This document shows, piece by piece, positions 2,505 to 24,440 of a stretch of DNA of 34,898 bases. Below the pieces are notes generated by a model. The model had not been told where the DNA came from and ran no database searches. It saw only the letters and a list, made by a program, of their open reading frames with translations. Made by a program: the position numbers and the translations under genes. The stretch is from NCBI GenBank assembly GCA_964607235.1, contig CAZSJU010000004.1, forward strand, positions 1 to 34,898, written 5' to 3'. The DNA comes from an uncultured Anaerolineae bacterium. Lineage in GTDB: Bacteria > Chloroflexota > Anaerolineae > S140-20. The first letter of the stretch is position 1; every line of letters begins with the position of its first letter.

Positions 2505-2771
2505 TGTCAACACCTCCAAGTGTTTTTGATCAGGCTTTCAGAGCCTTGAGATTCTTGAACGCTTGTCAAACAGATTAGAATGTGTAGGCTATAGTTTTGT
2601 GTTTGGGTATCACCTCCACTGCGCATTGATTGAGCAATCTGAGCGTCTGGACGCTGACTTGCGGCAACTCGGCTGTGTTGGGATAGATGTCAGATTAGGC
2701 CAAGGACGCACAAATTCATATCGGGTGAGAAAAATAACACAAATTTGAAAAAGGGGGAAAACAAACTAAAC

Positions 2772-3784: not shown

Positions 3785-3816
3785 CCATATCAAGGTTGAT
3801 CAAGGAGGGAAAAAAG

Positions 3817-4854
3817 ATGAAACTAGGCTTGGCAGTTTTGGGTTTTGGTAATGTAGGAAGAGCTTTTGCTCGATTGTTGCTGCGCAAGGCTCCCGCATTG
3901 GCCTCCGATTATGATTTACAGTTATCGGTGACGGGGATCATGACCGCGCGCCACGGCAGCGCCATTGACGCAACCGGCATTGATCTGCAACAGGCGCTAG
4001 CGTTGGCGGCGTCCGGCGCCCCATTGGACGTGCTGTCCACCACTCCACCGCCGGACGATAGCTTGTTATTCTTGCACGCGTGCCCGGCGGATGTCTTGAT
4101 AGAGCTGACGCCCATTAATTTAAAAGACGGCGAACCGGCCGTCAGCCACGTGCGGATGGCGTTGGAAAAAGGGATGCATGTCGTCAGCGCCAACAAGGGA
4201 CCATTGGCCTTTGCCTGCCACGAGTTGCGTGACCTGGCCGCGTCACAAGGTCGCGGGTTTTTGTTCGAAGCCACAGTGATGGATGGTGCACCGGTCCTGG
4301 GCGTGGCGCGGGTGGGACTACCTGCAGCGCGGGTGCTGGGCTTTCGCGGTGTGTTCAACAGCACCACCAATTATATCTTGACCCAGATGGAGACCGGCGT
4401 GTCTTTTGACGAGGCCGTGCGTGCGGCTCAGGCGATGGGCATTGCCGAGACTGACCCTAGCGCCGATGTCGACGGATGGGATGCGACGGTCAAGACGGTG
4501 GTACTGGCCAATGTGCTGCTGGGCGCTGACCTGCGCCCGATCGACGTCGACCGCACCGGCATCCGTGACCTGACGCCGGCGGATTTGCAAGCGGCGTGTG
4601 AACGGGGGGAGCGCATCAAGCTGCTTTGCCAGGCTGAGCGCGAGGGCTCAAGCGGCGGCTGCGTGGCCCGCGTCGCTCCCATGCCTGTGCCGATTTCGGA
4701 CCCGCTGGCCAGCCTGGGCGGCACGTCCAGCATGATCACGCTAGAGACGGACACGCTCAAGCAACTCAGCCTGATCGAGTTTGAGCCACAACCCGCCCAG
4801 ACCGCCTATGGTTTGTTGGCCGACTTGGTCAACCTGGCCCGTGGCTGGTACTGA
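3817..4854 (+). CDS. hom: homoserine dehydrogenase (short form, no ACT domain)
   Basis: 345 aa from the ATG at 3817, with AGGAGG at 3804-3809. Motifs: GFGNVGRAF (NAD fold), VVSANKGPLA, FEATVMDGAPV, NSTTNYIL, and AETDPSADVDGWDATVK (catalytic D/K region). Confidence 0.8.
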   Translation: MKLGLAVLGFGNVGRAFARLLLRKAPALASDYDLQLSVTGIMTARHGSAIDATGIDLQQALALAASGAPLDVLSTTPPPDDSLLFLHACPADVLIELTPINLKDGEPAVSHVRMALEKGMHVVSANKGPLAFACHELRDLAASQGRGFLFEATVMDGAPVLGVARVGLPAARVLGFRGVFNSTTNYILTQMETGVSFDEAVRAAQAMGIAETDPSADVDGWDATVKTVVLANVLLGADLRPIDVDRTGIRDLTPADLQAACERGERIKLLCQAEREGSSGGCVARVAPMPVPISDPLASLGGTSSMITLETDTLKQLSLIEFEPQPAQTAYGLLADLVNLARGWY

Positions 4855-7106: not shown

Positions 7107-7205
7107 TGGCGGGAGTGGATGGGAGTCGAACCCACCAGAGCTGGTTCTGCACCACCTCTCAGCGGTTTTGAAGACCGTGGAGCCCACCAGGACTCAACCA
7201 CCCCC
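7107..7205 (-). tRNA. selC: tRNA-Sec (anticodon UCA), CCA encoded
   Basis: The 99-nt minus-strand sequence is GGGGGTGG-TT-GAGTCC-TGGT-GGGCTC-CACGGT-CTTCAAA-ACCGcTG-AGAGGTGGT-GCAGA-ACCAGCTCT-G-GTGGG-TTCGACT-CCCAT-CCACTCCC-G-CCA. It has an 8-bp acceptor stem plus a 5-bp T stem (the bacterial 8/5 Sec fold). It also has a 6-bp D stem with a 4-nt loop, a 6-bp anticodon stem, a U33-UCA-A37 loop, a 9-bp extra arm and discriminator G73. Confidence 0.9.
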
Positions 7206-7275: not shown

Positions 7276-8490
7276 CTAGTCAAGGGTTATGCCACAGATG
7301 GATACCCAGGACGTGCCATTCTGATCGGCCGGACAACGGTCGTAACCGGCACGGTTACCCGTGGTGCCGTCTAACAGGCGCAAGGTCAAGTAGATCGGCG
7401 CCAGGCCGCAGACGTTGCGACGGTCCTCCTCATCGGCGATGCGTTGGTAAAATGTTTGGGCATCCCCGGCGCAAATGGTTTCAATGAGGGCATCATCGGC
7501 GGCAGCCAGGCGAGCGCGGCCCGTCAGGTCGACCGGCTGCGGGTCTCCAAAGGCGGGACCGACGTGCGCCAGGTCGCCGGCGGCGACGACAAGGGCGGTA
7601 CGTCCTTCCAGGGCATTGTGCAGCGCTTGCAGTGCCCGTGTAAAGGTTGGGTCGCTGACCGGCTCATAAGGAGTGTGCATAAAATGGTGAAAAGAGCCGC
7701 ACAAGATGGGCACCAGCTCGATTTTGTCGGCCGGTTGGCGCCTGCGAACGTGGTGTAGCCACACTGCTGCTAATTCGATGGAATGCTCGCTGACGTGGTG
7801 CAGCTCTTCGGCAAAGGCAAACTCTGGCCCGACCGCTTTGGCTATGGCGTCCACGACGTCGGTGGCGGTAGGCAGAACGCCATAGGGTGTGGCATAATGC
7901 TGGCGGGTCAATGTCAGTGTCCCTTGTCCCCCATTGTGGTCGGTGCCCAGGATCACGGCGACGTCGGCGGCCCGTGCGACGTCGGCGGCGTCTCGCCACA
8001 CCTGTGCGTAAACCGGTCCGCCCCGCTCATAGTCGATGTGCGGGCTGACCAGCCCGCGTCCGTCAAAGCGTTTCGCGGGCTCGGACAAATTGTCGATATA
8101 GCCGTCCAGCATCGCGGCCAATGCGTCAGGGTCGGCTGGATAGCTGGCGCCGGCTGAAGTCGGTGACCGGTGTGGCGCCTGATGATAGTCAGTTAGAGCA
8201 GTGTCACACGCCTCCTCAAAGCGCTCGTTGTGCAATAGCAGCGCGCGGTCTAGTTGCTCAATGACGTGGGTCATCTCGCTTTTACTAAGGCTCAGGCCGG
8301 CACGCACCGTCAATGACGCGCGTAGGGCATCCAGGTCTCGGGTACCGTCCAGTAGGAGCAGCATCGGCGCCATTTGTTGCGAGATGATGACTACGCGCTC
8401 GGTCAGATGGAGCGGATCACGCAGCAACAGGGCCGGCTGCCCGTTATGCAGCATCGGATAAGTATGGATAGGTCGCAGCTTGAGATTCAT
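7276..8490 (-). CDS. Memo-like protein (AmmeMemoRadiSam system protein B family) with ~110-aa N-terminal extension
   Basis: 404 aa, with AGGAG 10 nt upstream of the ATG at 8490. Memo/extradiol-type motifs: VSPHIDYERGGPVYA, ILGTDHNG, VSEHSIELAAVWL, AAGDLAHVG, NVCGLAPI. Confidence 0.75.
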   Translation of the reverse strand: MNLKLRPIHTYPMLHNGQPALLLRDPLHLTERVVIISQQMAPMLLLLDGTRDLDALRASLTVRAGLSLSKSEMTHVIEQLDRALLLHNERFEEACDTALTDYHQAPHRSPTSAGASYPADPDALAAMLDGYIDNLSEPAKRFDGRGLVSPHIDYERGGPVYAQVWRDAADVARAADVAVILGTDHNGGQGTLTLTRQHYATPYGVLPTATDVVDAIAKAVGPEFAFAEELHHVSEHSIELAAVWLHHVRRRQPADKIELVPILCGSFHHFMHTPYEPVSDPTFTRALQALHNALEGRTALVVAAGDLAHVGPAFGDPQPVDLTGRARLAAADDALIETICAGDAQTFYQRIADEEDRRNVCGLAPIYLTLRLLDGTTGNRAGYDRCPADQNGTSWVSICGITLD

Positions 8491-8572: not shown

Positions 8573-8950
8573 TCAATAAACGCCCAGCTCACGCAGCCGG
8601 TCCTCATCCAGGCCAAAGTGGTGGCCCAGCTCGTGGATGACGACCATGCGTACGCGGGCTTGGACCTCTTGGGGTGTGCGGCAGGCGGCCAGGATGGGGC
8701 GACGGAAAAGTGTGATTTTGTCTGGCAGCACCATACCATAGCCGTGGCTGCGGCGGGTCCGTGGCACCCCTTCGTAAAGACCCATCAACGTGGTGTGAGG
8801 AGCAAGCCCCAGCCGCCGACGTTGCGCGGCGGATGGCGCCTCGTCCACGGTGACATCGACGTTGTCCATCTTGGTATGCACCCACGCGGGCAGCGTTTGC
8901 AGGGCTTGTACCACCAATTGCTCGAACGTGTCTCGATCTATATCTAACAT
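8573..8950 (-). CDS. small zincin-like metallopeptidase-family protein (DUF1025-like)
   Basis: 125 aa from the ATG at 8950, with AAGGTG 6 nt upstream. It has a C-terminal VIHELGHHFGLDE motif. The track start at 8956 (GTG) lies only 2 nt after the end of the upstream gene's stop codon (8961-8963); the preferred ATG at 8950 lies 10 nt downstream of it. Confidence 0.7.
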   Translation of the reverse strand: MLDIDRDTFEQLVVQALQTLPAWVHTKMDNVDVTVDEAPSAAQRRRLGLAPHTTLMGLYEGVPRTRRSHGYGMVLPDKITLFRRPILAACRTPQEVQARVRMVVIHELGHHFGLDEDRLRELGVY

Positions 8951-8960
8951 GAGCACACCT

Positions 8961-11900
8961 TCAAGGCTGCAGCGTGATGCGGGTGATGAGGATCACCCTG
9001 GTGCTCCCGTCATCCAGGACCAGGCGTTGCTGCGTGTCCGGGTCATACAGCCCCGCGATCAAGGCATATGAGCCCGGTGTCCCCTCGGCCGGGATGTCTA
9101 GGACGCGCGTGTCCAGGATGACTTCACCGGGCGCCCAGCCGGTGGTGGGGCGCGTCCAATCGGCAGGCTCTCCGTCCGACTGGGTCAGTAAACTGCCATC
9201 AGGCTTGAGCAGATGCAAAAAGACGCGGTAGCTGGTATGCATCTCGACCTGACCTTGCCAGGCCAGGGTCACCGTGAGCGTGACGGGCGCTTGCAGCGGC
9301 GTGGTGACGGTCGGTTGCAAGTTAGCGCCGAGCAGCGTCACACAGTCGTCTTTTTTGCCTTCTGGGAACGGTTCGTCCCCTGAGACCACGTGGGAGCAGG
9401 TGAGCGTGGCGTCCAGAGGCAACTGCAAGTCAGGCGGTTGCCAGCGTCGCGCCGGTGCCTGGACCTGGAGTTGACCTAGGGTGGCCTGGGGGGTGAAGGT
9501 CTGCTGGGTGACCGGGTCAAAAAGTTCCAGCCCCCAGGTATAGGTGCCGCTTGCCAGGGAGGCGGGCAAGCGTAAAGCGTGCTGCCCACGCCATAGATCG
9601 CCGGCTTGCCATTGTGAGGTGGACCAGTCGCTATGCACTAGCAAGTCCCGGGCATGGACGGTGTGGTCCTGTTGATCTTGCAGCGTCAGTCTAGCCTGCA
9701 GATCAGGTATCCGGTTGGTGTCGAGCTTGTGCCAGAAGAGGGTAACCAGCATGGGGTCGCCAGGAGCAGCTTGGGCGCGGTCTAGGTTGGCGCCAAGCAG
9801 GGTCAAGGGACCCATATCGACGTCCAGGTCATATTGCATCGTGACCGCGTCCGGGTCAAGCGCGTAGGAAGGGCGGGTCAGCGTGACTTGACCCACAACC
9901 AGGTTGGGGCCAGCGATTTGGCCAGACTCGTCAAACACGTCAAGTGGCGCTAGCGTCTCGCGATCAAAGGCAGTGAGCAGCAGATTGTAACGACCAGGCG
10001 GTGTCCCGGACAGCGGTTCGATGTCGAGTCCCTGTACCGCGTAACGCCCGTTGCCCCATGCCGAGCTAGGAGGAAGATCCGCGTAACCACGGCGGGGAAA
10101 GGCTGACTTGTCGCTCCAAAGCTGCCCATCGGGGCCTTGCAGCACCACGGTGGCTTTGTAGCTGCGAGTGGGACGGACATAGGCGCTCCAATAAAAAGCC
10201 AGGTGCAACGTCCCATCGCTGGGCATGTGCGCGGTGCTACGATCATAGCCCAGCAAGCGGACGCCGTCCTTAAAACGGACGTCTAGCGGCACGTCCACGT
10301 CAGCCAGTGTGCTGTCCGCTTGCAGGCCGGAATGGCGTAAAGGTGTGTCCGTGCGGTCAACCACAAACACCTTGAACGCCAACAACATTAACGCCAAAAG
10401 CGCTAGCGTGGCAATGTGCGCCCAGTTAAGTTGTGTGATAAAGCGATGCGTGGTCTGAGAGCGGTTCGGTGATGTGGCTTGGATACGGTCGGCGAAATAA
10501 TCCCTCACGCTAATGTAGGTGACAAAGGCAACGCTGGCCAGTGCCAGTATGGAGAGCATCGTGGCCCCAGCCCGAATTGGCGTGCTGCCCCAATCAATCT
10601 CCACCGTGTGGCGACCGGCCGACAGGTCAAAGGTAATCAACCCTTCGGGCGTGCTGGGGATGATCTCGACGGGGCGGCCGTCGACACGAACCTGCCAGCC
10701 CGCAAAGGCGAACGTCAGGTAACGGGCACGGGTGGCTTGGGGCGTCTCGATCTCTAGTTTAGCATAGTTGGGCGCATATCTGGCCCAGTGAATCGTCGTT
10801 CCATCGGGCAACGACTCGGTGTCAAAGCGAGCGATAGTGATTTCTCCATCGTCACTAGCAGAGTCCAGGGCAGCGGCATATTGGGCCTCCAACGGCGAGT
10901 CGATAGGACGAGCCTGTACAGTCACTGGGAAATAGCTACCCTCAGGATCCACACCCACCAAGCGACTAAGATGTTCGTAGGCAAAAAGATCGAGAATGTT
11001 AGGCTGGGGTTTAGTAGGACAGTAGCCAGTAGGTGGATAGGTGAACGGCAAAGCCGTGACGATCAATAATGTCACGCTTAAGACTAACAACAAGGATAGG
11101 GGCAGCTTGTGCCCACCCCATCCCAATGAGAGTAAAGCGGTGACAAAGGCGCCAGCGAGAAGTGATAGCGGCAGCACCGCGCGACCGACAAAGCGCCAGG
11201 GGAACTGCACAAAGGCAACCAAGGGCAGATTCTCCCACAGCGGGAGCGAAGCACGTGTGGCCATGAATACCATGATAACCGCGGAAAGGACCAGGAAAAC
11301 GACCGTGACCCAACGTTCACGGCTTGCGGCGTCCGGCTGGAAGGTGTCCTTCCGGGGGCGCCAGCACCATAGCCCTCCTATGCTTCCCAACAAAGCCAGC
11401 AGCGCCAGTGGCAGGCCGACCGGCAGCTGCAACGGCGGATTCAAAAGAGCCGAATCAACAGGCTCGGGGGGCGCAAATACCTCAGAGAGGTTGACAAAAT
11501 TGTAGTGAAAGTCATTGTTGCGCGTCATGCGCGACAAATGCAGTTGCACATAGTCCTTCTCTAGCACGGCTGGCGCCCAGAAAAAGGCGGTCAGTCCCAG
11601 GCTTAGCATCAGGGCGACGCCTGCGGTTACCAGGTGACCGCGCCGTCCTCGAGCCCACCACAAGGCCAACAAGTAAGCGACCAGGAAAGGTGTGAACAGC
11701 AAGCTAGAGATGTTGTGGGTCAAGTACAGCAGGGCCAATGACCCGACGCTGCTCAACAGATAGCGCGCCTGACCACCCAAGAGCAAGCGACGAAAGGCCC
11801 ACAAAATAAAAGGAAATAATGCCAGCGCCACCGATTCGGGCATATTGCCACGCACCAGGGCATCGATGAAAGTATAAGGCGCATAAACATAGGCCACAGC

Positions 11901-12287
11901 CGCGACGAGACCGGCCCATCTTCCGAACAGGTCGCGTCCCAACAGATAGACCCCGATCGCCGAAGCGAGCATCGCCAATACATAAACCAGGTTGAGGGCC
12001 AGCGGCAAAGGCAGGCCTATCAGGTGCAGCGCCAGCCCCAGGTAGTAAGAAAAGGCAGCCCGATAATTAAAAAAAGGATAGCCGTAACCAAACGCCAAGT
12101 CTGGGACCCAACGGGAGCCAAGTAACCCATCCTGCAGGGCATAGCGCATGGCCACGATGCGAAAGTAGTGCAATCCACCATCGTGTGTGCAGGGCGGATC
12201 GTCACGCAGCAAAGGGATGACGGCAGTAATCATCAGCAAGACGAGCACACCCAGCAACCCGATTTCTTTGGCCTGTTGTGACTTCAT
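8961..12287 (-). CDS. large polytopic membrane protein, GT-C-fold glycosyltransferase-like (COG5617-like N-terminus) with three C-terminal beta-module repeats
   Basis: 1108 aa. The N-terminal ~600 aa contain many hydrophobic helices (..HDGGLHYFR.., YGYPFFNYRAAFSYYL). The C-terminal ~450 aa hold three ~120-aa modules ending in the pattern PPGxYxLxLxxFD/YDP. Confidence 0.7.
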   Translation of the reverse strand: MKSQQAKEIGLLGVLVLLMITAVIPLLRDDPPCTHDGGLHYFRIVAMRYALQDGLLGSRWVPDLAFGYGYPFFNYRAAFSYYLGLALHLIGLPLPLALNLVYVLAMLASAIGVYLLGRDLFGRWAGLVAAVAYVYAPYTFIDALVRGNMPESVALALFPFILWAFRRLLLGGQARYLLSSVGSLALLYLTHNISSLLFTPFLVAYLLALWWARGRRGHLVTAGVALMLSLGLTAFFWAPAVLEKDYVQLHLSRMTRNNDFHYNFVNLSEVFAPPEPVDSALLNPPLQLPVGLPLALLALLGSIGGLWCWRPRKDTFQPDAASRERWVTVVFLVLSAVIMVFMATRASLPLWENLPLVAFVQFPWRFVGRAVLPLSLLAGAFVTALLSLGWGGHKLPLSLLLVLSVTLLIVTALPFTYPPTGYCPTKPQPNILDLFAYEHLSRLVGVDPEGSYFPVTVQARPIDSPLEAQYAAALDSASDDGEITIARFDTESLPDGTTIHWARYAPNYAKLEIETPQATRARYLTFAFAGWQVRVDGRPVEIIPSTPEGLITFDLSAGRHTVEIDWGSTPIRAGATMLSILALASVAFVTYISVRDYFADRIQATSPNRSQTTHRFITQLNWAHIATLALLALMLLAFKVFVVDRTDTPLRHSGLQADSTLADVDVPLDVRFKDGVRLLGYDRSTAHMPSDGTLHLAFYWSAYVRPTRSYKATVVLQGPDGQLWSDKSAFPRRGYADLPPSSAWGNGRYAVQGLDIEPLSGTPPGRYNLLLTAFDRETLAPLDVFDESGQIAGPNLVVGQVTLTRPSYALDPDAVTMQYDLDVDMGPLTLLGANLDRAQAAPGDPMLVTLFWHKLDTNRIPDLQARLTLQDQQDHTVHARDLLVHSDWSTSQWQAGDLWRGQHALRLPASLASGTYTWGLELFDPVTQQTFTPQATLGQLQVQAPARRWQPPDLQLPLDATLTCSHVVSGDEPFPEGKKDDCVTLLGANLQPTVTTPLQAPVTLTVTLAWQGQVEMHTSYRVFLHLLKPDGSLLTQSDGEPADWTRPTTGWAPGEVILDTRVLDIPAEGTPGSYALIAGLYDPDTQQRLVLDDGSTRVILITRITLQP

Positions 12288-12335
12288 AATGCGTTATCTC
12301 ACTCTTTCTTTTGCCCTGCAAGAAAAGGCTGGCGT

Positions 12336-12364
12336 ATTATAGCACGGTCAGCCCTCAGGTGCCA
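12336..12364 (-). promoter_or_regulatory. extended -10 promoter for the 1108-aa gene
   Basis: Minus strand TGcTATAAT (-10 at 12341->12336) with a weak -35 TGGCAC (12364->12359). Confidence 0.4.
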
Positions 12365-12498
12365 GAGCCGGTTTGCGATGTCTGCTCTACAATGCCAGCT
12401 TTCAAGCGGCTGACATCTCGACCGGTCATTTCCCTGATGGAGGAGAAATTGGACAAGCTTGTTCCGCCTACGCCGAGAGAACACAACGCCGCTGATTA

Positions 12499-14499
12499 TT
12501 AACGCAACAGCACGGGTCCCACAACCTTCAGATCGCCGGCTGGGTTACCGGCAGCATCTAGCACCGGCACGTTGACGATATCGGGAAAAGTGTACATTCC
12601 CAGGTGTATCCAGTACTGGCCCTGCGGTGCGTCGGCGTTTGTCTCAATAGAAAAGCGGGTCAGCACCAGGTCGCCGGTCTGCCATGCTGCGCTGTCCAGG
12701 CCCGCCATATCGTGTTGTCCCCAGCGTTTTCCTTCCGCGTCTACCAGATGCACAAAGAGGTGATAGTCGATGCCAGTCGGCGCTGGTCCGTCCAGCCACC
12801 AGGCCACCGAAAACTGGAGCGGTTGATGAGATTGCGCGTCGTCAATGCCGTAGGCGAGCCATTCGACACCGTTGGCCAGCCGGCGCGGTGCGGACAGCGG
12901 CGTCAGCCCTGCCAACACATCATCGCGGCTCGCATTGTCGCGCTGGAATAGCCAGTAACGAGTGTTCCCTGGCGCCGCTATGGGGTCCAGTGCGGTGGTG
13001 CCCGACAGTGCGCGCAACTGCACGGTGGCTGTTTGCACGTCGGGCGTGGTGATGTAAACTGCCGGTCCGAGGGGAAAGACCAATGCTTCGCGGCCGTCTA
13101 TCAGGCGGTGAGGCAGGTGCCGAGGCAGCAACACGTCCAAAGCGGCCGGTCGGTTATCCCACAGCGGGTCGTCCCCTTGAGCCACGAGCAGGATCTCGGC
13201 GCCACACGCTTGCGCAGCCGCTCCGGCGGCCTGGGCCGTTTGCCATAGTGGCCCGACCGTCGGACCATAGCCGTTGGGTGTGTCGTGCTGGGTCACAAAC
13301 CGGTTGAACGCCCGGTTCAGGTAGATTTGCCATCCCCCAATCAAGAGCAACAATCCCACCACGCTGATCATGCCATAGCGGCCCCAGCGTGGGCCATAAC
13401 GTTTCTGGAGCTGGGCGAGCCCGTCGCTCAACAGCAGGGCGATGATCAGATGTTGGACCGGATAGAGCAAGATGAAATAGTGTGGGTAAACCGGTTGGGT
13501 GTGACGGGTTTGGAGCGCTACTGGCACGAGCAGCCACAGCAACAGTACCAGGTTGCGTCCCAATGACGCCGGACGGGGTCGGTCTTTTTCTTGCGCCTGG
13601 CGCACGATGCGCGCGATCAAATAGATCACGCCTAGACCCAGCAACGCCATCTCGACCCCGTCGAGCCAGCGTAGAGGCGGCAGCGTGTCCAGGAACTGCG
13701 CATAGCGGGTGCCGGCCAGGTCTTGGTAATGATAGCCGCTGCTCAGCCAGACTGCAAAACGCGTCGCTTGCCAGTCAATCTGGGCAGGGCCACCTCCCAG
13801 ATCGAGAAACCCGCGCAGGTTGGCCCAACCGTGGGTCCCGGCGTCGTGGTAGAGATAGGGCGCAGCGCACAGCACCAAGACCGCTACGCTGACCAGCAGC
13901 GGTCGACGTTGTAGCTGCGCGCGGAAGGGCAGCAAGATCAACACCAGGATGATCAAAAAAACCAGTCCTCCCAGATGAGTGCCGACGAGGGCGACCAACG
14001 CCAGGCTGGCGCCCAGCAACGCCCAGGGCCGGCGCTCCACGATCAGCAAGAGTAAGAAAAAGATGAAAAGCGTCGTGGCCAACGGCCAGTTCTGAGTCCA
14101 CATCTTGCGCGCGTAATAGATCGCCCAGGGATTGACGGCCAGCAGCGCGGCAGCGATAAAGCCGACCCGGCGACTGAAAAAGCGGGCGCCCAGCACAAGC
14201 GTCATGCCTACCCCGGCTGTGTGGATCAAGGCAATGACCGCGATGGCCAGCCGGGGATCTGGGGTCAGTGCTAGGGGCAACGCCATCAAGTAGACTTGCA
14301 GCGGCGGATGGGCCGGCCCTTGCGAGGATTGGGGGCCTATGATGGGGAAATGGCCCTGGCGGACCAGTGCTAACGCCTGGCGCGTGATGCCGGCCTCGTC
14401 GGCTTTGAATTCGGCCAGGTCCAACTGCGTCAGGCGCAGGGCCGCGGCCAGCAGCAAGAGCAGCATTAGAGATAACCAGCGAGATTTTTGGGTTGTCAT
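12499..14499 (-). CDS. ArnT/PMT-like (GT39/GT83-type) membrane glycosyltransferase with one C-terminal beta module
   Basis: 666 aa. It has a first-loop DE motif (FKADEAGITRQAL), then ~11 hydrophobic helices and one C-terminal module (..YHLFVHLVDAEGKRWGQHD..APQGQYWIHLGMY..). The start overlaps the upstream stop as ATGA (14496-14499). Confidence 0.75.
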   Translation of the reverse strand: MTTQKSRWLSLMLLLLLAAALRLTQLDLAEFKADEAGITRQALALVRQGHFPIIGPQSSQGPAHPPLQVYLMALPLALTPDPRLAIAVIALIHTAGVGMTLVLGARFFSRRVGFIAAALLAVNPWAIYYARKMWTQNWPLATTLFIFFLLLLIVERRPWALLGASLALVALVGTHLGGLVFLIILVLILLPFRAQLQRRPLLVSVAVLVLCAAPYLYHDAGTHGWANLRGFLDLGGGPAQIDWQATRFAVWLSSGYHYQDLAGTRYAQFLDTLPPLRWLDGVEMALLGLGVIYLIARIVRQAQEKDRPRPASLGRNLVLLLWLLVPVALQTRHTQPVYPHYFILLYPVQHLIIALLLSDGLAQLQKRYGPRWGRYGMISVVGLLLLIGGWQIYLNRAFNRFVTQHDTPNGYGPTVGPLWQTAQAAGAAAQACGAEILLVAQGDDPLWDNRPAALDVLLPRHLPHRLIDGREALVFPLGPAVYITTPDVQTATVQLRALSGTTALDPIAAPGNTRYWLFQRDNASRDDVLAGLTPLSAPRRLANGVEWLAYGIDDAQSHQPLQFSVAWWLDGPAPTGIDYHLFVHLVDAEGKRWGQHDMAGLDSAAWQTGDLVLTRFSIETNADAPQGQYWIHLGMYTFPDIVNVPVLDAAGNPAGDLKVVGPVLLR

Positions 14500-17400
14500 G
14501 GGATATTGACCTCAATCGGCAGAAGGATCTGGTCGTTGGGCAATATGTTCCCCGCCGCGTCATAGACCGGCAGGCGCGCGCCGCTGAGCGGATCATATAG
14601 GCCCACGGCGACGTGGTAAGCGCCGGGAGGCGCGTCGTCCAGGACCGGCAAGGCCAATTCGTCAATGATGACCTGACCGGGCGCCCAGCTATGGGTCGGG
14701 GCTGCGCCGTTGGCCGGAGGGCGGTCCACCTGACCATAAATAGTATCGCGAGTGCCGGGGCCGCGCAAGTGGACAAAGACGATATAGCTCAGGTCGGTGG
14801 GACCGTTCGCTTGCCAATACAGCGTCAATGGGATCTGTTGGCCACCCTTTACTTCTAGCGCACCCGGGTGCTTTAGCGCAGCGTTCGGGAGATCAAAGCC
14901 GCGCAGTTGCACTTGTTGACCCAATCTAAGGTCCAGCGGGTAGGCAATACCCGCTGGCAGGCTAAAAAGCCGGTCACGGGCCAGGACTGTGAGCCTGGTC
15001 AGGACATAGTTGTCGGCCCACAGGGGCGTGCCGTCTGCATCTAGCACATTGAGCCGCAAATCATAGAGGCCGGCCGGTAAATCGGGCGGGATGGGCAAGT
15101 CATAACGCACCTGCTCCAGTTCCCCGTCACGCCATTGGCCCGTCGCATAGGGGCTCAAGGGGAGGGTTTGCCCCACTATGGGGCTGCCGGCAGGGGCGTC
15201 TGGGACCAACAACTGCCAGCGCAAGGCATAGTCAGTGTCGGGAGCGGTCGTGGCTTGCCAGAACAAGTCAAAGGACACCACGTCCCCCGAGGGCACTTGC
15301 GCCGGTGGCGGGTGCTGTCCCAGTAATCTCAGCGGGCCGGCCGCGCGGGGTGGGTCGATCCGCTGTGTCATATCTACCTCGCCCGGTGTGGGCGGACGTT
15401 CGGGGGCGGCGATGGTGACATGGCCCAAGTCCAGGCTCAAACCGGCAAACCTGCCGACCGTGTCCCAGGCACTCAGCCCCTTACCGCTGTCCGGATCAAA
15501 TGCGCCAAGTGCGACGCGATACTGGCCCGGCGGGATAGCTGGGGGCAAGGATAATTTAAAAGTCTGGTCGCTCCATTCGTTCGGCCTCCAGGCTGAGGGA
15601 TGTCGATAGTCAGCGTCCAATATCTCTTGCCCACCTTCTAGCCAGGTGCGCCCTGTCGCATCCCGCAAATGCAAGACTGCACGATAATCGCCGGAGAGAG
15701 GGGCTAACGCCGACCAGCGGACGACAACCGGCAGATCGTCAGGCCAGGACAACGGCACGCTGGGAAGCACGGTGCCGACGAGGCTCAATCGCTCCCCAAA
15801 TCGGGCTTTGGAGGGCGTCAGACGTGCTATACAATTACTCGGGTCGGTTGATGCCTCTGGAATGATCTGATAAAAAGTGGCACCAGCGATGAAAGCGACC
15901 TCGTGCAGTTCGCCGTAGCACGCGAGCGCTTGTTGCAAGTGTTGCATAGTGACCGGCGAAGCGGCGGATAGAGCGACGTACCATATATGTCCGGACTCGG
16001 TTTGTAGGGCGTGCAGACGCTCGGCGACCTGGGCCGCATTGCGGGCATCGGCCAGAGAGACTAGCGTGGCCGGGCCATTGTATGTACGAGTCAACGCCGC
16101 TTGTGTGTCAAGCAAGACCACGTCCTCCCGCGCGGCGTGCTCGCTCAGATAGGCCGCTTGTGCCAAGGGTGCTGGGTTGCGATAGAGCCGGGCGTAAATG
16201 ATCCCGGCGATCCGTTTTTCATAGACCAGCGTCGCATCGCCCTCCCCTTGGGGCCAATGCGTGCCTTGTTGCGGAGGGTGCAGGAAATAGTCGGCCTGGG
16301 AGAGGGTTGCTGTTGACAAGGGCACCGTTTGCCCGACGAATAGCGAGGCCAGCGGTGGGATTGAAGGGCTGGCGACGATTAACTGTTCGGCGTTGGGTTG
16401 CTCGTTTAACCAACGAGCCGCAGCGCCCGACCCTTCGCCCCATCCAACCGGCAACCATTCCAGGGCTGTCCGTGGCCCGCCCAACAAGGGATTAAAAAAA
16501 GCCAGCGGCGTGAACAGATAGGGCAAGAGGATCCCGATTTGGAAAAGGGCTACAAGAGCGCTGGAGAAACGATACAGTCTTTTCCCTCTGTCCCCTAGCC
16601 ATTCACTTATGCCTTGCCAACCCAATGCGGCGACCAGGGTTAGCGCTGGAAAGACGGGCAGCAGATAACGGTCGTGTTTCTTGCCGACCAGGGTGAGGCA
16701 CAGGCCGAACCCCAGTGCCCAACCGGTGAGCGCGAGGGCCCACTTGTCCTCACTTGTTCTCACTTGCCCTCGCTTGCCCTCCCTGCCAGAGGCGTGTCGG
16801 CGTGGGCTGCGGCGGCGCAGATGGCGCCACAGGCCGGCGAGCCAACCGAGCAGCACCCAGGGTGAGGCGCGCAGGAGCCCCACCACCGGGTAAAAGCCCG
16901 CGCCAGGTGTAAAGGTGTCCTGGCCGTGAAAGAAAATGGGCCGCAGCGCGCCCTCCACGTGCCGCTCCCCGACATCCAATAGCCCGCGCAAGGTGGACAG
17001 CGGCGCTGTCCACATGGCGGGGTAAAAGGCCAGGAAGGCCAGCCCGGCTGTCACTCCCCACAAGGTCAAGGCGATGAGGGCCTGATGCCACGTGAGGCGA
17101 CGCGTGAGCGCGGCGGACAAGAGCATGATGCCGGCAAAAGGCGCCAGCAGGCCGCCGGGCGTCTTGGTGAGCGCGGCCAGACCGGCCAGCAGACCTGACA
17201 AGGCGGCCCAGCGATAAGGGGCGGGTTGGGCGGGGCGGACGGTGAGCAATAGCGTCAGGATTGACAAGGTCGTCGCCGTGGCCAGCAGGCCGTCCACGTG
17301 CAACAGACCGCTATGGCCGATCAAAAAAGGGTCCAGGGCCAGTAAAAGGGCCGCCAACCAGGCGGTTTTGCGCCCCCACAATCGCGCGCTCAGGGCAAAG

Positions 17401-17813
17401 GCGCCGGCGACGCCCAAGCTCGTGACCACGGCGACCAGGACACGCCCCGCCGGCAAAAAGAAAGCCAGGGGGCCAAAGGCGGCGGCGTTTTGGGGAGAGA
17501 GGCCGGCCAGTCCGTCCAACCAGTTCAAATGGGCTGCGGCGGTGTCGGGGTCCAGCCAGCAGTGAATCTGTACCCCCAGGCTGCCCAGCCACATCGTCGT
17601 CACACCCGGGTGACCCGTGGCCGGCAATGCACTCAGATCACCCGCTGCCAACGCCTGGCGAAAGTGGATCGAACGTTGCACCCACGCTGGTTCGTCCGGT
17701 GTCACATAGCGGCCGCCGGGCGCCAGGCGTAACAACAGCGCCAGGGCAAAGATCAGCGCCAGGGACAGGTCATACAAGTTTTGCGACTCTATGGCTGTGG
17801 CTTTGTGCTGCAT
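14496..17813 (-). CDS. ArnT/PMT-like (GT39/GT83-type) membrane glycosyltransferase with three C-terminal beta modules
   Basis: 1105 aa from the ATG at 17813, with AGGAG at 17829->17825; the track start at 17825 is a GTG. It has a first-loop DE motif (YVTPDEPAWVQRS), a polytopic N-terminal half and three C-terminal ~120-aa modules. Confidence 0.75.
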   Translation of the reverse strand: MQHKATAIESQNLYDLSLALIFALALLLRLAPGGRYVTPDEPAWVQRSIHFRQALAAGDLSALPATGHPGVTTMWLGSLGVQIHCWLDPDTAAAHLNWLDGLAGLSPQNAAAFGPLAFFLPAGRVLVAVVTSLGVAGAFALSARLWGRKTAWLAALLLALDPFLIGHSGLLHVDGLLATATTLSILTLLLTVRPAQPAPYRWAALSGLLAGLAALTKTPGGLLAPFAGIMLLSAALTRRLTWHQALIALTLWGVTAGLAFLAFYPAMWTAPLSTLRGLLDVGERHVEGALRPIFFHGQDTFTPGAGFYPVVGLLRASPWVLLGWLAGLWRHLRRRSPRRHASGREGKRGQVRTSEDKWALALTGWALGFGLCLTLVGKKHDRYLLPVFPALTLVAALGWQGISEWLGDRGKRLYRFSSALVALFQIGILLPYLFTPLAFFNPLLGGPRTALEWLPVGWGEGSGAAARWLNEQPNAEQLIVASPSIPPLASLFVGQTVPLSTATLSQADYFLHPPQQGTHWPQGEGDATLVYEKRIAGIIYARLYRNPAPLAQAAYLSEHAAREDVVLLDTQAALTRTYNGPATLVSLADARNAAQVAERLHALQTESGHIWYVALSAASPVTMQHLQQALACYGELHEVAFIAGATFYQIIPEASTDPSNCIARLTPSKARFGERLSLVGTVLPSVPLSWPDDLPVVVRWSALAPLSGDYRAVLHLRDATGRTWLEGGQEILDADYRHPSAWRPNEWSDQTFKLSLPPAIPPGQYRVALGAFDPDSGKGLSAWDTVGRFAGLSLDLGHVTIAAPERPPTPGEVDMTQRIDPPRAAGPLRLLGQHPPPAQVPSGDVVSFDLFWQATTAPDTDYALRWQLLVPDAPAGSPIVGQTLPLSPYATGQWRDGELEQVRYDLPIPPDLPAGLYDLRLNVLDADGTPLWADNYVLTRLTVLARDRLFSLPAGIAYPLDLRLGQQVQLRGFDLPNAALKHPGALEVKGGQQIPLTLYWQANGPTDLSYIVFVHLRGPGTRDTIYGQVDRPPANGAAPTHSWAPGQVIIDELALPVLDDAPPGAYHVAVGLYDPLSGARLPVYDAAGNILPNDQILLPIEVNIP
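16741..16780. repeat. four tandem imperfect 10-mers inside the 1105-aa CDS
   Basis: CACTTGTCCT CACTTGTTCT CACTTGCCCT CGCTTGCCCT, exactly head to tail. The period is not a multiple of 3. It encodes ..GREGKRGQVRTSEDK.. in a loop region. Confidence 0.8.
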
Positions 17814-17860: not shown

Positions 17861-17889
17861 ATTATAGGGGCAGGATGGACGATTGTCAA
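17861..17889 (-). promoter_or_regulatory. perfect-consensus sigma70 promoter for the GT-C operon
   Basis: Minus strand TTGACA (17889->17884), 17 nt, TATAAT (17866->17861). It lies ~48 nt upstream of the ATG at 17813. Confidence 0.65.
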
Positions 17890-20891: not shown

Positions 20892-23800
20892 TCACGCGTC
20901 GCTGTCATCCAAGGCCAGTTCGATCAGTCGATGATAATCGGACAGGACGCGCCCGGCCATCATCTCCTTTATCGCCATCTGGACGGTATCACCGTGCGCG
21001 ACACGTTGACCGCGTTGCCACCAAGAGACGGCGGCGGCGCCAGCGCCGGCGATGGCTGCCATGTCTTTGGGCCGTGCGCGCAAGGCCAACCAGCCTAACG
21101 CGACGGCTACCCAGGGCCGCAGTGGCATCTCCCACTCTAGTTCATCCCAGGCCTTTTCCAGGTGTTGGATGGCTTGCTCCACGTGGTCGAGGGCCGGGTC
21201 GATCAACCCCAGCTTGCCTTCCACGCGTGCGGGGTGTTCTGTCTCCTGCATAGCATTCTCATAGGCCGTGAGGGCCTTTTCGTACCGGCCGGTTAATGCG
21301 TACACGTCACCCAGACGCTCGTAAGCGTGGGAGCGCTCCTGGCTCAGCGCTGGGTCCTCGTTCGAGATGTCTATTGCAGCCTGATAATAGCCTGACGCTT
21401 CATCCCAGGCCTGGCGGGTGCGGGCTTTGTCGCCGGCCAGGCGATTGTAGCGCACGCCTCGGGTTGGCGCGTCGCTGTGACTATAGTGGTAGGCCAGGGC
21501 CTCCAAGTGTGGATAAGCGTCACCCCGAGCCAGGTAATCGGCGATCACACGGTGCCACTTGCGACGCTGTGCATAAGGCACGCTGCTATAGACCGCGTCT
21601 TTGAGCAATGGGTGCACAAAGGTATATTCGGCGGCCGGCGGCTCTGGCGTGAGCAGGGATTGTTCAGCCAGGACTGTCAGATGTTGCACGAGTTGCGCTT
21701 CATTCAGGGCACTGGCTTGGGTCGCCAGGTGGCGTAGGGACTCCCAGAGGACGGTGTCACCAATGACCGAGGCCAGCTTGGCGACGATGCGCGTCGTTTC
21801 GTCAAGTTGGTCGACCCGGCTAAGCATGATCTCGCGCACGGTAGGGGGCAGGCTGGGCAGTGTTTTGTTCAGAGTCACGCAGCCCGTGGCCGGATCGATG
21901 CTCAATCCATCGGCGCCGGCCAGGGCGTACAGCAATTGTGAGGTAAAGAGCGGATTCCCCTGGCTGCGCTGGTGCAACCAGTTCACCAGCTCGGGCGCGG
22001 CCTCTCTGGCACGGATAAGCTGGGCCGCCAATTTGCCGGTGCTGGCCCAGTTCAGGCCTTCCAGCAGCAGCCTCTCGGCTCCGGTCTCGGCCACCCACTG
22101 TTTCTCGGCTTGACCTAGCCGGGCCGTGCTCAGCAAGAGGATGGGATAACGTGCCGTGGCGTGCGCCAGGGTGATCAGCGCAGCCCAGGAAGCATGATCC
22201 GCCCACTGCAAATCTTCAACGATCAAGAGAATGGGCTTGTCTTGCTGGACAATCTCTTTGAACAGGGTGAGTAACGCCTGGTCGGGGTGGATGCGCTGCC
22301 CCAGGCGCTCCCACAACGAAGGCAGTTCAGTGGCCAGGGAGGGGTCGCGTTCGGTCAGGCGCCGCACCAACGTCAGGTAAAGATCCCGTCCTACAGAAGG
22401 GGGTTGTGCGATCCGTTCCCGCAGGATCGCGTACAAGTCCGGTCGTCCCTCAAGGCGCGGGACGGCGCTGCGCGATGGCAGAGAGGCAAAGGTCTGAGGT
22501 AACCCAAAAAGCTGGCAGAACGCCTCGGCCAATTGCCCCTGGCCCAATTGTTCCAAGACCCGGTGGACGCGGACGTGACGTTCAGTGTCGTCGGCGGCTG
22601 TGTCTAGCTCGAACCAACGCCACAGTGCCTCAATCCAGGGGGTGTAGGGTATAGTCTGAGCGTAGGAAAGGCAGCGACCGGCCAACAGCGTGACATCCCA
22701 ATAGCGCGCGCGTCGGGCCAGCTCGGCGATGAGGCGTGTTTTGCCCATGCCGGTTTCACCAATCAGAAGCACAGTGCCGCCTTGTCGTTTCTCCAACTGG
22801 TTCAATTTATTCTCGAGGATGCTCAGCGGTTCTTCTCGGCCGACCAGCGGGCCGACGGCAGCCTCGATCAGCCAGGCGCTGGCCGGCACGCGCCGCTCTA
22901 CGGCGTACACTGTTACAGGCTTGGCTTTGCCCTTGAGCTGCATCGGCTCTAATGGGCGACACTCAAAGGATTGACGCACGCGATCGTACACCCGGCCGCT
23001 GATAAGGATCTGGTTGGGCTTGGATTTGTTCATCAGCCGCGCGGACAGGTTCACGTCGTCGCCGACGACGACGTATTCTCGACGTTCTTGCCAACCCACT
23101 TGACCGGTATAGATGGGGCCATACGTGATGCCGATGTGATGGACAAGTTGCAGGCCCTCGGCCTGATCCCCGATTTGCTCTTGGAGCACTGTTTGCAGGT
23201 CTTGGTTCAATGCCTGGAGTTTTTCGTTCAGGCGCAGCGCGGCGGCAGTGGCGCGGTGGGGCGTCTCTTCTTGCGCCAGCGGTGCGCCAAAAGGACACAG
23301 CAACGTAAAGCCTTTAGCATAGGGGTCCACGTGCGTGACCAGGCCGCCGCAGCCGGCCAGCGTTTCCTGGGCTTCGATAAAATAACGGTTGACCCAGTAG
23401 GTGAGCCGTGATAGATCTTGGGGCCCCAGCGTCTCTAGCAGCGTCTCAAAACCGCGCAGGTTGACAAACATGACCGCTACAAGGCGGTGCTCGCCGGGAA
23501 ACAGGCGCTCGCGTTGGTGGGCCAGGATGCGTTGCAGCACGTTAGGCGGGAAAAAAGGCGCCAGCCTTTCAATGTCGACCAGTGTCATTTCGGCCGTATC
23601 GAGCAAGGCGTCGGGCTCTCGCTCTAGCACCAACCGTCTGCGGTAACGGCGTTGGGACGATAGCCCGCTCACTTCAAAATCTCCCAGCTCGTCTCCCAGG
23701 TCGTCCACCACCACTTGGTAGCCTTTGGGCAGCGCGGTCAGGCGGAATCGATCATCCAACACTTTTTCCATGCCTGGGGCCAGGACTACCTGGCGCGGGT

Positions 23801-24440
23801 CAGCTTTTGACTCTGCCTGCATCGACTGTTGAATGGGTTCACCGGTGACCAGATATTCCATGCGTTGCGCAGTGCCGATCTGCGCAGCCAGAAAACGGCC
23901 CCGCGCCAGGCCAATGCTCATGCTCAACGGGGTTGGGCCACTGTCAAAAGGCACAATGGCGCGCGCCATGCGCAGTCCGGCGCGGATGGCCCAGACGGCA
24001 TCCTGGGCGTTTGCCATAGCAGGAAAAAAAGCCTGCACAGCGTCGCCGGCAAAGATGAGCAGTTCACCTCGCGAGCAGGAAAGGGGATCAAGCAAGGCCG
24101 TGAACAGATCGTTGATCATGCGGTTAAGGCGCTCGGCGCCCTCTTCGCCCATTTCACGCAAGCGTTCGGTTAGCGGCGTAAAGCCGGTGACGTCCGCGAA
24201 CAAGATGGTGCCCTCTAGCAGCTCGCTTGAGGGCACGCCGGGCGTTGGGTCAGAAAGCACCAGGGAACGAGGCAAATAAGTGACCAGGTTGTGATGCAAG
24301 GAATTGAGGGCATGGACGATCTCTACCAGGTCGTCGAGCGTTGGTTCACAATCCAGGCGTGCAACCAAGCCGGCGGGCAAAAAAGCTCGCAGACGCGAAT
24401 ACAGTTCTTCTAATGTCGCCCGGTGCGTGGTATCGACCAT
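20892..24440 (-). CDS. tandem class III nucleotidyl cyclase domains fused to STAND/AAA_16 ATPase and TPR repeats
   Basis: 1182 aa. CHD1: ILFADVTGFT .. LIFAGDAVQAFF. CHD2: VMFVNLRGFE .. HIGITYGPIYTGQVG..YVVVGDDVNLSARL. P-loop: LLIGETGMGKTRLI. The C-terminus is TPR-like (YERLGDVYALTGRYEKALTAYENA). Confidence 0.85.
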   Translation of the reverse strand: MVDTTHRATLEELYSRLRAFLPAGLVARLDCEPTLDDLVEIVHALNSLHHNLVTYLPRSLVLSDPTPGVPSSELLEGTILFADVTGFTPLTERLREMGEEGAERLNRMINDLFTALLDPLSCSRGELLIFAGDAVQAFFPAMANAQDAVWAIRAGLRMARAIVPFDSGPTPLSMSIGLARGRFLAAQIGTAQRMEYLVTGEPIQQSMQAESKADPRQVVLAPGMEKVLDDRFRLTALPKGYQVVVDDLGDELGDFEVSGLSSQRRYRRRLVLEREPDALLDTAEMTLVDIERLAPFFPPNVLQRILAHQRERLFPGEHRLVAVMFVNLRGFETLLETLGPQDLSRLTYWVNRYFIEAQETLAGCGGLVTHVDPYAKGFTLLCPFGAPLAQEETPHRATAAALRLNEKLQALNQDLQTVLQEQIGDQAEGLQLVHHIGITYGPIYTGQVGWQERREYVVVGDDVNLSARLMNKSKPNQILISGRVYDRVRQSFECRPLEPMQLKGKAKPVTVYAVERRVPASAWLIEAAVGPLVGREEPLSILENKLNQLEKRQGGTVLLIGETGMGKTRLIAELARRARYWDVTLLAGRCLSYAQTIPYTPWIEALWRWFELDTAADDTERHVRVHRVLEQLGQGQLAEAFCQLFGLPQTFASLPSRSAVPRLEGRPDLYAILRERIAQPPSVGRDLYLTLVRRLTERDPSLATELPSLWERLGQRIHPDQALLTLFKEIVQQDKPILLIVEDLQWADHASWAALITLAHATARYPILLLSTARLGQAEKQWVAETGAERLLLEGLNWASTGKLAAQLIRAREAAPELVNWLHQRSQGNPLFTSQLLYALAGADGLSIDPATGCVTLNKTLPSLPPTVREIMLSRVDQLDETTRIVAKLASVIGDTVLWESLRHLATQASALNEAQLVQHLTVLAEQSLLTPEPPAAEYTFVHPLLKDAVYSSVPYAQRRKWHRVIADYLARGDAYPHLEALAYHYSHSDAPTRGVRYNRLAGDKARTRQAWDEASGYYQAAIDISNEDPALSQERSHAYERLGDVYALTGRYEKALTAYENAMQETEHPARVEGKLGLIDPALDHVEQAIQHLEKAWDELEWEMPLRPWVAVALGWLALRARPKDMAAIAGAGAAAVSWWQRGQRVAHGDTVQMAIKEMMAGRVLSDYHRLIELALDDSDA

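Follow-up and report, generated by a model that had tools for sequence, protein, structure and literature searches.

The carbohydrate-binding module (CBM) at the C-terminus of EmbC binds arabinan acceptors, and full activity requires it (PMC3044687), and the glycosyltransferase family 136 (GT136) enzyme ORF12 of Citrobacter binds its O-polysaccharide acceptor through a C-terminal Ig-like CBM (PMC11127046). AftD and EmbA/B are cited in the latter report as further CBM-bearing precedents among glycosyltransferases of the GT-C type (PMC11127046). Here we describe a stretch of DNA of 34,898 nt (the window, at its full length) from an uncultured Anaerolineae (Chloroflexota) bacterium of a microbial mat, in which three neighboring genes, A, B and C, all on the minus strand, encode GT-C glycosyltransferases from three different GT-C families, the fold being modeled for A and assigned through Pfam for B and C. 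Their C-terminal ends carry 3+1+3 copies of one module of ~135 aa. By analogy with the enzymes above, we propose, with a probability of about 0.6, that the three proteins are envelope glycosyltransferases that would depend on lipid-linked sugars and use CBM-like modules to bind the acceptor.

14496-17813, minus strand: gene A, 1105 aa counted from the ATG, 1109 aa from a GTG further upstream
12499-14499, minus strand: gene B, 666 aa
8961-12287, minus strand: gene C, 1108 aa

An earlier note on this DNA (the original prediction) had called three minus-strand open reading frames (ORFs) of 1105, 666 and 1108 aa, and these were found exactly where it had put them; the alternative GTG of A lies 4 codons before the ATG and overlaps the likely ribosome-binding site. 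Its description of the N-terminal halves was likewise borne out: all three are polytopic, as judged from hydropathy and from the model of A, and all three are of GT-C type, with PMT_2 above the Pfam cut-off in A, B and C and a GT-C fold in the model of A. Neither outcome that would have overturned the original prediction arose: the module fell into no described carbohydrate-binding or Ig-like Pfam family, and the N-terminal half that was modeled, that of A, took a GT-C fold.

In common with EmbA/B/C and AftD, the locus would combine a polytopic GT-C core, a polyprenyl-phosphate sugar and an extracytoplasmic acceptor-binding β-sandwich (PMC3044687; PMC11127046). A further likeness would be that several paralogous GT-C genes act on one polymer, and AftA is among the structural matches of A; with GT136 ORF12 the locus shares a terminal Ig-like domain, which is a CBM there. 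Unlike the CBMs of Emb and AftD, to which they have no sequence relationship (no such PDB match even at E ≤ 10), the modules stand in a triple of fixed order, drawn from a single domain family and placed at the very end of the protein (C-terminus), and the host is a member of the Chloroflexota rather than an actinobacterium. The GT-C families differ as well, being PMT_2/PTPS_related in the window and GT53 and others in the mycobacterial systems.

The seven modules are distributed as follows, with scores from position-specific hidden Markov models (HMMs) trained on other organisms only, without the window proteins:

15399-15806, minus strand: A module 1, subtype m1, residues 670-805; 127.8 bits with the m1 HMM, 80.5 with m2, 57.4 with m3
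14949-15380, minus strand: A module 2, subtype m2, residues 812-955; 108.4 bits with m2; degenerate, framework residues only
14499-14942, minus strand: A module 3, subtype m3, residues 958-1105; 142.2 bits with m3
12502-12927, minus strand: B module, residues 525-666; 84 bits with m1, then 65 bits with m3
9870-10316, minus strand: C module 1, subtype m1, residues 658-806; 116.8 bits with m1
9423-9857, minus strand: C module 2, subtype m2, residues 811-955; 111.6 bits with m2
8964-9374, minus strand: C module 3, subtype m3, residues 972-1108; 117.9 bits with m3

Alignment in register of all seven, HMM scores of 84-142 bits and significant BLAST similarity, both for the C-terminal half of A against that of C (E 7e-40, with 28% of positions identical over 449 aa) and for single modules (A3 against C1, E 1.4e-11; A3 against B1, E 5e-10), bear out the claim of a shared module in 3+1+3 copies. 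The seven motif strings quoted in its support were all present at the expected residues, and a six-frame HMM scan of the window revealed no eighth copy. The idea of seven equivalent copies, by contrast with this, had to be given up: the subtypes follow a fixed order, A1 and C1 being m1, A2 and C2 being m2, and A3 and C3 being m3, so that there are two ordered triples (m1-m2-m3) plus a singleton in B, and three diverged subtypes. Among the ORFs of 80 related loci, m1-m2-m3 occurs in 93, m3 alone in 41, m3-m3 in 23 and m1 alone in 20.

Per-column conservation across 104 proteins (numbered as in A) is highest in m3 at F1013 (0.97), H1015 (0.94), Q1028 (0.97), D1030 (0.99), P1033 (0.99), P1039 (0.99), T1040 (0.98), W1043 (1.00), G1046 (0.92), a Glu at 1047 (0.95; Gln in A itself), D1051 (0.97), Y1073 (0.98) and R1080 (0.99). 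The near-invariant H/Q/D/W/E/D/Y/R set is kept by m3 only, with m2 retaining just framework residues (W1000, W1043, G1064 and Y1066) and m1 being intermediate. C3 has the full m3 set and A3 all of it except for the Gln that replaces Glu at 1047; the B module keeps the counterparts of the m3 H, Q, D, W, G and Y residues and not those of D1051 and R1080. Conserved polar and aromatic residues confined to m3 are what a ligand site would look like, and the set is a candidate for one on sequence grounds.

As originally suspected, the module is not a named domain: HMM searches assign it to no Pfam or NCBIfam family (best Pfam E-values 0.013-0.15, for DUF4832, DUF4625, Plectin and CopC), PDB sequence searches with profiles of 7 and of 75 modules gave nothing significant (best E 0.02-0.1, with the fibronectin type III (FnIII)-type protein RbmA at 0.02 and a sialidase linker), and a literature search found no paper describing it. 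An AlphaFold2 (AF2) model of the module alone, made for A3 with 75 diverse modules, has a predicted local distance difference test score (pLDDT) of 93.4 and folds eight to nine strands into a β-sandwich, in line with the beta-type fold foreseen for it; the model identifies the module as an E-set/Ig-like β-sandwich. Its Foldseek neighbors are RhoGDI, NPC2/ML, Unc119, the Wzt C-terminal domain and Ig-like domains of β-galactosidases, all at E-values of 1e-5 to 1e-3, template-modeling scores (TM-scores) of ~0.4-0.6 and identities of 7-17%; the query-normalized TM-score is 0.54-0.56 for the glycan-binding C-terminal domain of Wzt (2r5o), and the value for NPC2 is 0.5-0.6. The Wzt domain, NPC2/ML and RhoGDI are, like the module, E-set-type β-sandwiches of similar size but have no sequence-level relationship to it, and because their ligands differ (a glycan terminus, a sterol and a prenyl group, respectively), none can be transferred to the module. 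Membership in the ML domain family (PF02221) was rejected, the scores being 14.4 bits in A and 21.1 bits in the best relative (P0066) against a cut-off of 22.7, with no Pfam ML match for six of the seven modules. In full-length Foldseek searches, the three-module array of A aligns with macroglobulin (MG)-domain arrays of complement C3/TEP and with RbmA.

A profile search of 1.84 billion cluster representatives (50%-identity clusters) recovered 26,892 module-bearing representatives at E ≤ 1e-3, 16,982 at E ≤ 1e-10 and 3,783 at E ≤ 1e-30. In the best 150 matches, three copies are found in 144 proteins and four in 6, the last copy ends a median of 7 residues before the C-terminus, and those that are 800 aa or longer are predicted to cross the membrane with 4-13 (mostly 7-10) segments ahead of the first module. 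The N-terminal halves of module proteins are PMT_2, PMT, PTPS_related or TMEM260-like and represent four GT-C subfamilies or more, so that the module unit has been fused to several of them. Named members are called 'glycosyltransferase family 39', 'ArnT family' or 'mannosyltransferase', an annotation that reflects the N-terminal half only, and come from Anaerolineae/Chloroflexota metagenome-assembled genomes (MAGs), with one MAG labeled Bacteroidota. Two metagenome fragments, P0270 and P0284, carry instead one or two PASTA domains followed by a C-terminal m3-like module and probably represent the external portion of a penicillin-binding protein or a PASTA kinase; PASTA repeats being extracytoplasmic, this is an independent, wall-facing and non-GT-C setting that supports a position of the module outside the membrane. 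Homolog searches with module alignments yielded short fragments of 83-280 aa, almost without names or Pfam context, and stand-alone module proteins of 135-157 aa without signal peptides were not taken as a free-standing form, since they may be fragments or miscalled genes.

Protein A consists of a PMT/ArnT-like GT-C core, an α/β domain and modules m1-m2-m3, the first two of which are delimited as follows:

16494-17813, minus strand: GT-C membrane core of A, residues 1-440, with eleven helices (11-432) assigned by DSSP on the model
15810-16493, minus strand: soluble α/β domain of A, residues 441-668, with alternating helices and strands at high pLDDT

Its AF2 model, built from an alignment of 28 orthologs, has a mean pLDDT of 88.5 and a predicted TM-score (pTM) of 0.83. 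Foldseek comparison of this model with the PDB returns ArnT (5f15, E 1.3e-7), ALG12, ALG9, Pmt4, STT3 and AftA at E-values of 1e-7 to 6e-6, with target-normalized TM-scores of 0.35-0.57 overall (ArnT 0.52, ALG12 0.57, Pmt4 0.54). Both Pfam matches of A, PMT_2 at 33.4 bits and PMT at 27.8 bits (cut-off 22.7), are above cut-off, and the latter spans only profile positions 86-243 of 245. ArnT (GT83) and the protein mannosyltransferases or PMTs (GT39) are the best fold matches of A and share with it the first-loop Asp-Glu and the PMT/PMT_2 families of Pfam; unlike A, ArnT has only a small periplasmic domain and eukaryotic PMTs have a MIR β-trefoil in a loop, and neither possesses a C-terminal β-sandwich array. 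Scans of A, B and C found no MIR or PMT_4TMC match in Pfam (nor, for B and C, a PMT match) and no ArnT model in NCBIfam, where only the distant TIGR03663 appeared at 17-25 bits against a cut-off of 126 bits. The acceptor of ArnT is lipid A, and Chloroflexota are generally held to lack lipopolysaccharide. No informative Pfam match was obtained for the soluble stretches that connect core and modules (A 441-668, B 395-524 and C 414-575).

The first extracytoplasmic loop of A contains D40-E41 (nt 17691-17696), which is invariant in the 28 orthologs, and basic loops at residues 144-149, 193-201, 238-239, 334-355 and 409-412 follow transmembrane helices TM2, TM4, TM6, TM8 and TM10. With eleven helices and basic loops on alternating sides, the C-terminus and the modules of A should lie outside; from the model we infer an inner N-terminus, with the DE loop and everything past residue ~433 on the outer side. 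The location of the modules outside the membrane that had been suspected from the sequence is thus supported by topology prediction. Following TM9, residues 378-386 of A (~16656-16682, minus strand) read K-K-H-D-R-Y-L-L-P, of which K379, R382, Y383 and P386 are invariant in the 28 orthologs. Helix parity puts this motif on the outer face, and by analogy with ArnT, where basic residues bind the donor phosphate, it could be a candidate donor-phosphate-binding site.

In sequence terms, B comprises an ArnT-like GT-C core (PMT_2, 30.3 bits against a cut-off of 26.1), the soluble middle region 395-524 and the single C-terminal module. Its first loop contains D34-E35 (nt 14395-14400); of 19 orthologs, all have E35 and at least 90% have D34; E30, F31 and K32 are, like E35, invariant in B orthologs. 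The 65 homologs of B are 28-65% identical to it, mostly 40-65% and ~650-700 aa long, and those with names are ArnT-like or GT39. Protein C, which matches PTPS_related (54.8 bits) and PMT_2 (27.8 bits), both above cut-off, appears to have a GT-C core of PTPS_related/YfhO-like type, followed by a loop domain on the extracytoplasmic side, an additional hairpin of two helices and modules m1-m2-m3:

10359-11048, minus strand: loop and hairpin of C, residues 414-643, by hydropathy a 162-aa soluble loop (414-575), a transmembrane helix (576-594), a short basic loop and a second helix (625-643)

The hairpin (576-643) would return the chain to the outside, and we infer from this arrangement that the modules of C are outside too. 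The first loop of C reads H35-D36-G37, in which D36 (nt 12180-12182) is invariant in 13 orthologs and the flanking His is not. As a result, the first-loop motifs of the original prediction stand in part: DE is conserved in A and B, and the 'HDG motif' of C was rejected in favor of the Asp alone, within T-x-D-G. Weak C-terminal matches to YfhO (11.7-15.8 bits against a cut-off of 28.5, to its C-terminal part), PgfM1 (22.3 bits against 1400) and PgfM2 (20.3 against 1500), together covering only C residues ~509-590, and a large outside loop before a late transmembrane helix make C resemble the YfhO/PgfM1 proteins; the scores are, however, far under the cut-offs, and C has a further transmembrane helix and three modules. 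The only match of C 414-575 among PDB sequences was to a designed repeat protein and was discounted as spurious.

Among the best 150 representatives, there are ~30 full-length A-type and 12 full-length C-type proteins. A-type loci number 526 in species-representative genomes, the best 80 of which are nearly all from Anaerolineae/Chloroflexota MAGs, plus one 'uncultured bacterium'. Since the cores of A and C have no BLAST similarity, the N-terminal halves matching different Pfam families, and each protein has separate orthologs, a recent local duplication was rejected; sequence comparison indicates that A, B and C are old, distinct families, each with its own orthologs across Anaerolineae. The description of the genes as lineage-expanded paralogs does not hold in consequence: they belong to three orthologous families, and a module present in 26,892 clusters is not peculiar to one lineage.

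Gene neighborhoods were counted by ORF clustering in the best 80 of the 526 A-type loci. The A-type gene in related genomes usually comes after a gene for an ArnC/GtrB-like polyprenyl-phosphate glycosyltransferase and heads arrays of up to six consecutive module-bearing GT-C genes, and arrays of this kind are common among Anaerolineae; a C-type gene directly follows it in about two dozen of the 80 loci, mostly those of closer relatives, and the overlapping A-B pair recurs, without a C after it, on a contig of 1.84 Mb (A 50% and B 59% identical). The recurrent neighbors are:

GT2 enzyme: 47 of 80 loci; in 44 of 79, upstream on the same strand and no more than 4 ORFs away
AlkP-like type I phosphodiesterase (PF01663): 31 of 80 loci, usually directly upstream of A
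LPG_synthase_TM 'flippase-like' protein: 18 of 80 loci
SurE: 16 of 80 loci
GT4: 12 of 80 loci

The neighboring GT2 is a full-length homolog of ArnC (E 3e-60), GtrB (1e-41) and dolichol-phosphate-mannose synthase (5e-17), all of which make polyprenyl-phosphate sugars for GT-C enzymes. Relatives thus resemble the GtrA/GtrB/GtrC and ArnC/ArnEF/ArnT systems in having an ArnC/GtrB-type GT2 and a flippase-like protein beside their GT-C genes, and the three components (synthase, flippase and GT-C) occur together in many related loci. Unlike in those systems, the flippase candidate is LPG_synthase_TM and not of GtrA, MATE or SMR type, one GT2 accompanies an array of up to six GT-Cs, an AlkP-like phosphodiesterase usually stands between the GT2 and A, and the window itself lacks the GT2 and flippase genes. 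The AlkP-superfamily neighbor (in L002-L047; for example L037, 8274-9929) is a protein of ~545 aa matching PF01663 at E 1e-43, without an obvious signal peptide; in ~30 loci its gene separates the ArnC-like GT2 gene from the GT-C gene of A type.

In the mechanism that we favor, the first loop, with its Asp-Glu (A and B) or Asp (C), would be catalytic and face the outer side of the cytoplasmic membrane, and each enzyme would most likely take one sugar from a polyprenyl-phosphate-sugar donor and attach it to an acceptor on the extracytoplasmic side, presumably a glycoprotein or else a polysaccharide of the wall or sheath. An ArnC/GtrB-type GT2 would produce the donor, which would then be flipped across the membrane; the genes responsible, which flank A-type genes in most relatives, would have to be elsewhere in this genome. 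Substrate binding by the module, which the original prediction had also considered, is plausible by analogy: because the C-terminal CBM of EmbC offers a parallel, binding of the acceptor glycan by the terminal m3 (A3, C3 and, in part, the B module) appears most likely, and the degenerate m1 and m2 might serve as a scaffold that positions m3. The ruler role that the original prediction had raised beside it gained no support from these analyses. Four observations weigh against this proposal. The module has no sequence match to a CBM or any other described family in Pfam, NCBIfam or the PDB; its best neighbors by E-value are lipid-binding sandwiches (NPC2 and RhoGDI) and not CBMs; TM-scores of only ~0.4-0.6 mean that fold comparison cannot assign its ligand; and a search of the window for a GT2 (donor synthase) or flippase-like gene found none, so that the link to a lipid-linked donor rests on relatives.

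A bolder and rather speculative extension, which we hold to be unlikely as a whole, is that the m1-m2-m3 array is a new, very large carbohydrate-binding family marking an uncharacterized polymer pathway of the Anaerolineae envelope. Arrays of different GT-C enzymes, supplied by one ArnC-like lipid-sugar synthase, would then assemble or decorate a polysaccharide of the wall or sheath on the outer side of the membrane, in a manner likened to arabinan building in mycobacteria, with m3 clamping the growing chain and a rigid m1-m2 stalk as a spacing device ('ruler') setting the distance between the bound chain and the active site.

That these proteins are instead strict PMT/GT39 protein O-glycosyl (mannosyl) transferases, the modules recognizing secreted, S-layer or sheath proteins in a role like that of MIR, is suggested by the above-cut-off PMT match and DE motif of A, by the GT39 or mannosyltransferase labels of relatives, by the presence of Pmt4 among the best structural matches of A and by the fact that some module hosts are TMEM260-like and so belong to a protein O-mannosyltransferase family. 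The PMT profile match is only partial, however, and neither MIR nor PMT_4TMC was found; ArnT and ALG9/12, which do not glycosylate proteins, match A equally well or better; C is in a different, YfhO-like family; and up to six different GT-Cs beside one ArnC-like gene resemble stepwise assembly or decoration of a polymer, all of which makes a dedicated protein O-mannosylation role doubtful. The modules might also have no specific ligand and act as a rigid stalk, spacer, oligomerization or wall-anchoring scaffold in the way of macroglobulin-type or FnIII arrays and RbmA. The structural alignments with the MG-domain arrays and RbmA, the framework-only conservation of m1 and m2 and a pTM of 0.83, which suggests fixed packing between the domains of A, are consistent with such a role, but about ten polar or aromatic m3 residues conserved at ≥94% in 104 diverse proteins go beyond the needs of a fold. 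Moreover, m3-type modules are the commonest reduced form (m3 alone or m3-m3), and their occurrence after PASTA repeats suggests that m3 has a function of its own; a purely structural role for the array seems to us improbable.

The weakest rival, to which we give very little credence, has the modules as ML/NPC2/RhoGDI-like lipid-binding sandwiches whose ligand would be a polyprenyl tail, either that of the donor or that of the carrier lipid after its release. It draws on the lipid- and prenyl-binding proteins RhoGDI, NPC2 and Unc119 being the best module matches by E-value and on the sub-threshold ML matches in A and P0066; yet every ML match is below cut-off, structural similarity and identity are as low as described above, and conservation falls on polar residues (H, Q, D, E, D and R) rather than on the lining of a hydrophobic cavity. 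The module also lacks the conserved cysteine pattern typical of NPC2-type ML domains, and conservation is strongest in the module that, along the chain, is most distant from the membrane core.

Relative to what is established, a GT-C core with a CBM-like β-sandwich, fed by an ArnC/GtrB-type synthase, is an already known design, and since CBM-like domains on GT-C enzymes have been described before, the proposed acceptor binding introduces no new principle. What is new is a very large unnamed domain family, the m1-m2-m3 order common to different GT-C families, a conserved candidate site specific to m3 and a conserved Anaerolineae operon. Almost nothing is known of the envelope chemistry of Anaerolineae, which rank among the most abundant uncultured bacteria of mats, sediments and digesters; a module that always sits on extracytoplasmic glycosyltransferases or after PASTA repeats offers a handle on an unstudied envelope polymer. 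With a domain family of three subtypes defined, thousands of proteins now called 'GT39 family' could be better annotated, the residues conserved in m3 lend themselves to mutagenesis, and the conserved operon (SurE, ArnC-like GT2, AlkP-like enzyme and GT-C array) represents a pathway to reconstitute.

The immediate surroundings of the three genes include two promoter-like sites and a small downstream gene:

17861-17889, minus strand: promoter-like site of the A-B unit, TTGACA-17 nt-TATAAT, sigma-70-type, 12/12 consensus positions
12336-12365, minus strand: promoter-like site of C, CTGGCA-18 nt-TG-c-TATAAT, 10/12 with an extended -10, inside the B-C gap
8573-8956, minus strand: Zincin_1 gene (PF06262, E 4e-32), directly downstream of C

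Both transcriptional features claimed for the first two genes are present: the stop of A and the start of B overlap as ATGA, and the perfect consensus promoter corresponds to the 12/12 site, which ends 47 nt upstream of the A start codon (ATG at 17813). A gap of 211 nt separates B from C, and an Rfam search found no match in it. With promoter-like sites before both A and C, the region therefore looks, from its sequence, like two transcription units, A-B and C, the latter perhaps with the zincin gene. A search of sequencing runs placed the window sequence only in DNA runs of microbial-mat metagenomes, with no RNA runs.

The zincin gene starts 4 nt (GTG) or 10 nt (ATG) past the C stop codon and is probably co-transcribed with C. 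The 4-nt spacing noted earlier is correct, counted from the GTG, and its relevance is not borne out: none of the 80 related loci has a zincin homolog, the gene being next to C only in near-identical contigs from the same organism. More generally, a functional link of the GT-C genes to their zincin, Memo or ppk1 neighbors was rejected, with no homolog of any of them in the 80 related loci; these three genes go with C only in the near-identical contigs. None of the recurrent partners of the related loci (GT2, AlkP-like phosphodiesterase, LPG_synthase_TM protein, SurE and GT4) is encoded in the window. A is preceded by a divergent ppk1 gene, and the remaining neighbors in the window are unrelated housekeeping genes.

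In L082 (4512-7792; JGI 3300012009), a contig apparently from the same organism, two called genes of 236 and 876 aa take the place of the single gene A, suggesting a frame difference or an assembly error in one of the versions. Over positions 10001-13000, which include the membrane-domain-coding parts of C and B, the plus strand has a strong AT skew of +0.22; minus-strand codons for hydrophobic residues, with their T-rich second positions, would give such a skew, and it does not count as a feature of its own.

Elsewhere in the window, a Memo-like protein (7276-8490, minus strand) matches AmmeMemoRadiSam system protein B (TIGR04336, 97.8 bits), and no AMMECR1 or radical-SAM partner for it was seen among the large ORFs. 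A selenocysteine tRNA gene (7107-7205, minus strand; anticodon TCA; Rfam tRNA-Sec, 70.8 bits) lies between the Memo-like gene and an InhA-like MAM gene. Two long ORFs, of 600 aa (717-2519, minus strand; called as a 595-aa gene in other assemblies of the same organism) and 357 aa (28623-29696, plus strand), are without a Pfam match. Two separate homoserine-dehydrogenase-like genes are present within these 35 kb, at 3796-4854 and 30142-31248, both on the plus strand. Finally, ~3 kb upstream of the cluster and beyond ppk1, positions 20892-24440 of the minus strand encode a signaling protein of 1182 aa that combines an adenylate/guanylate cyclase, an AAA_16 ATPase and TPR repeats.

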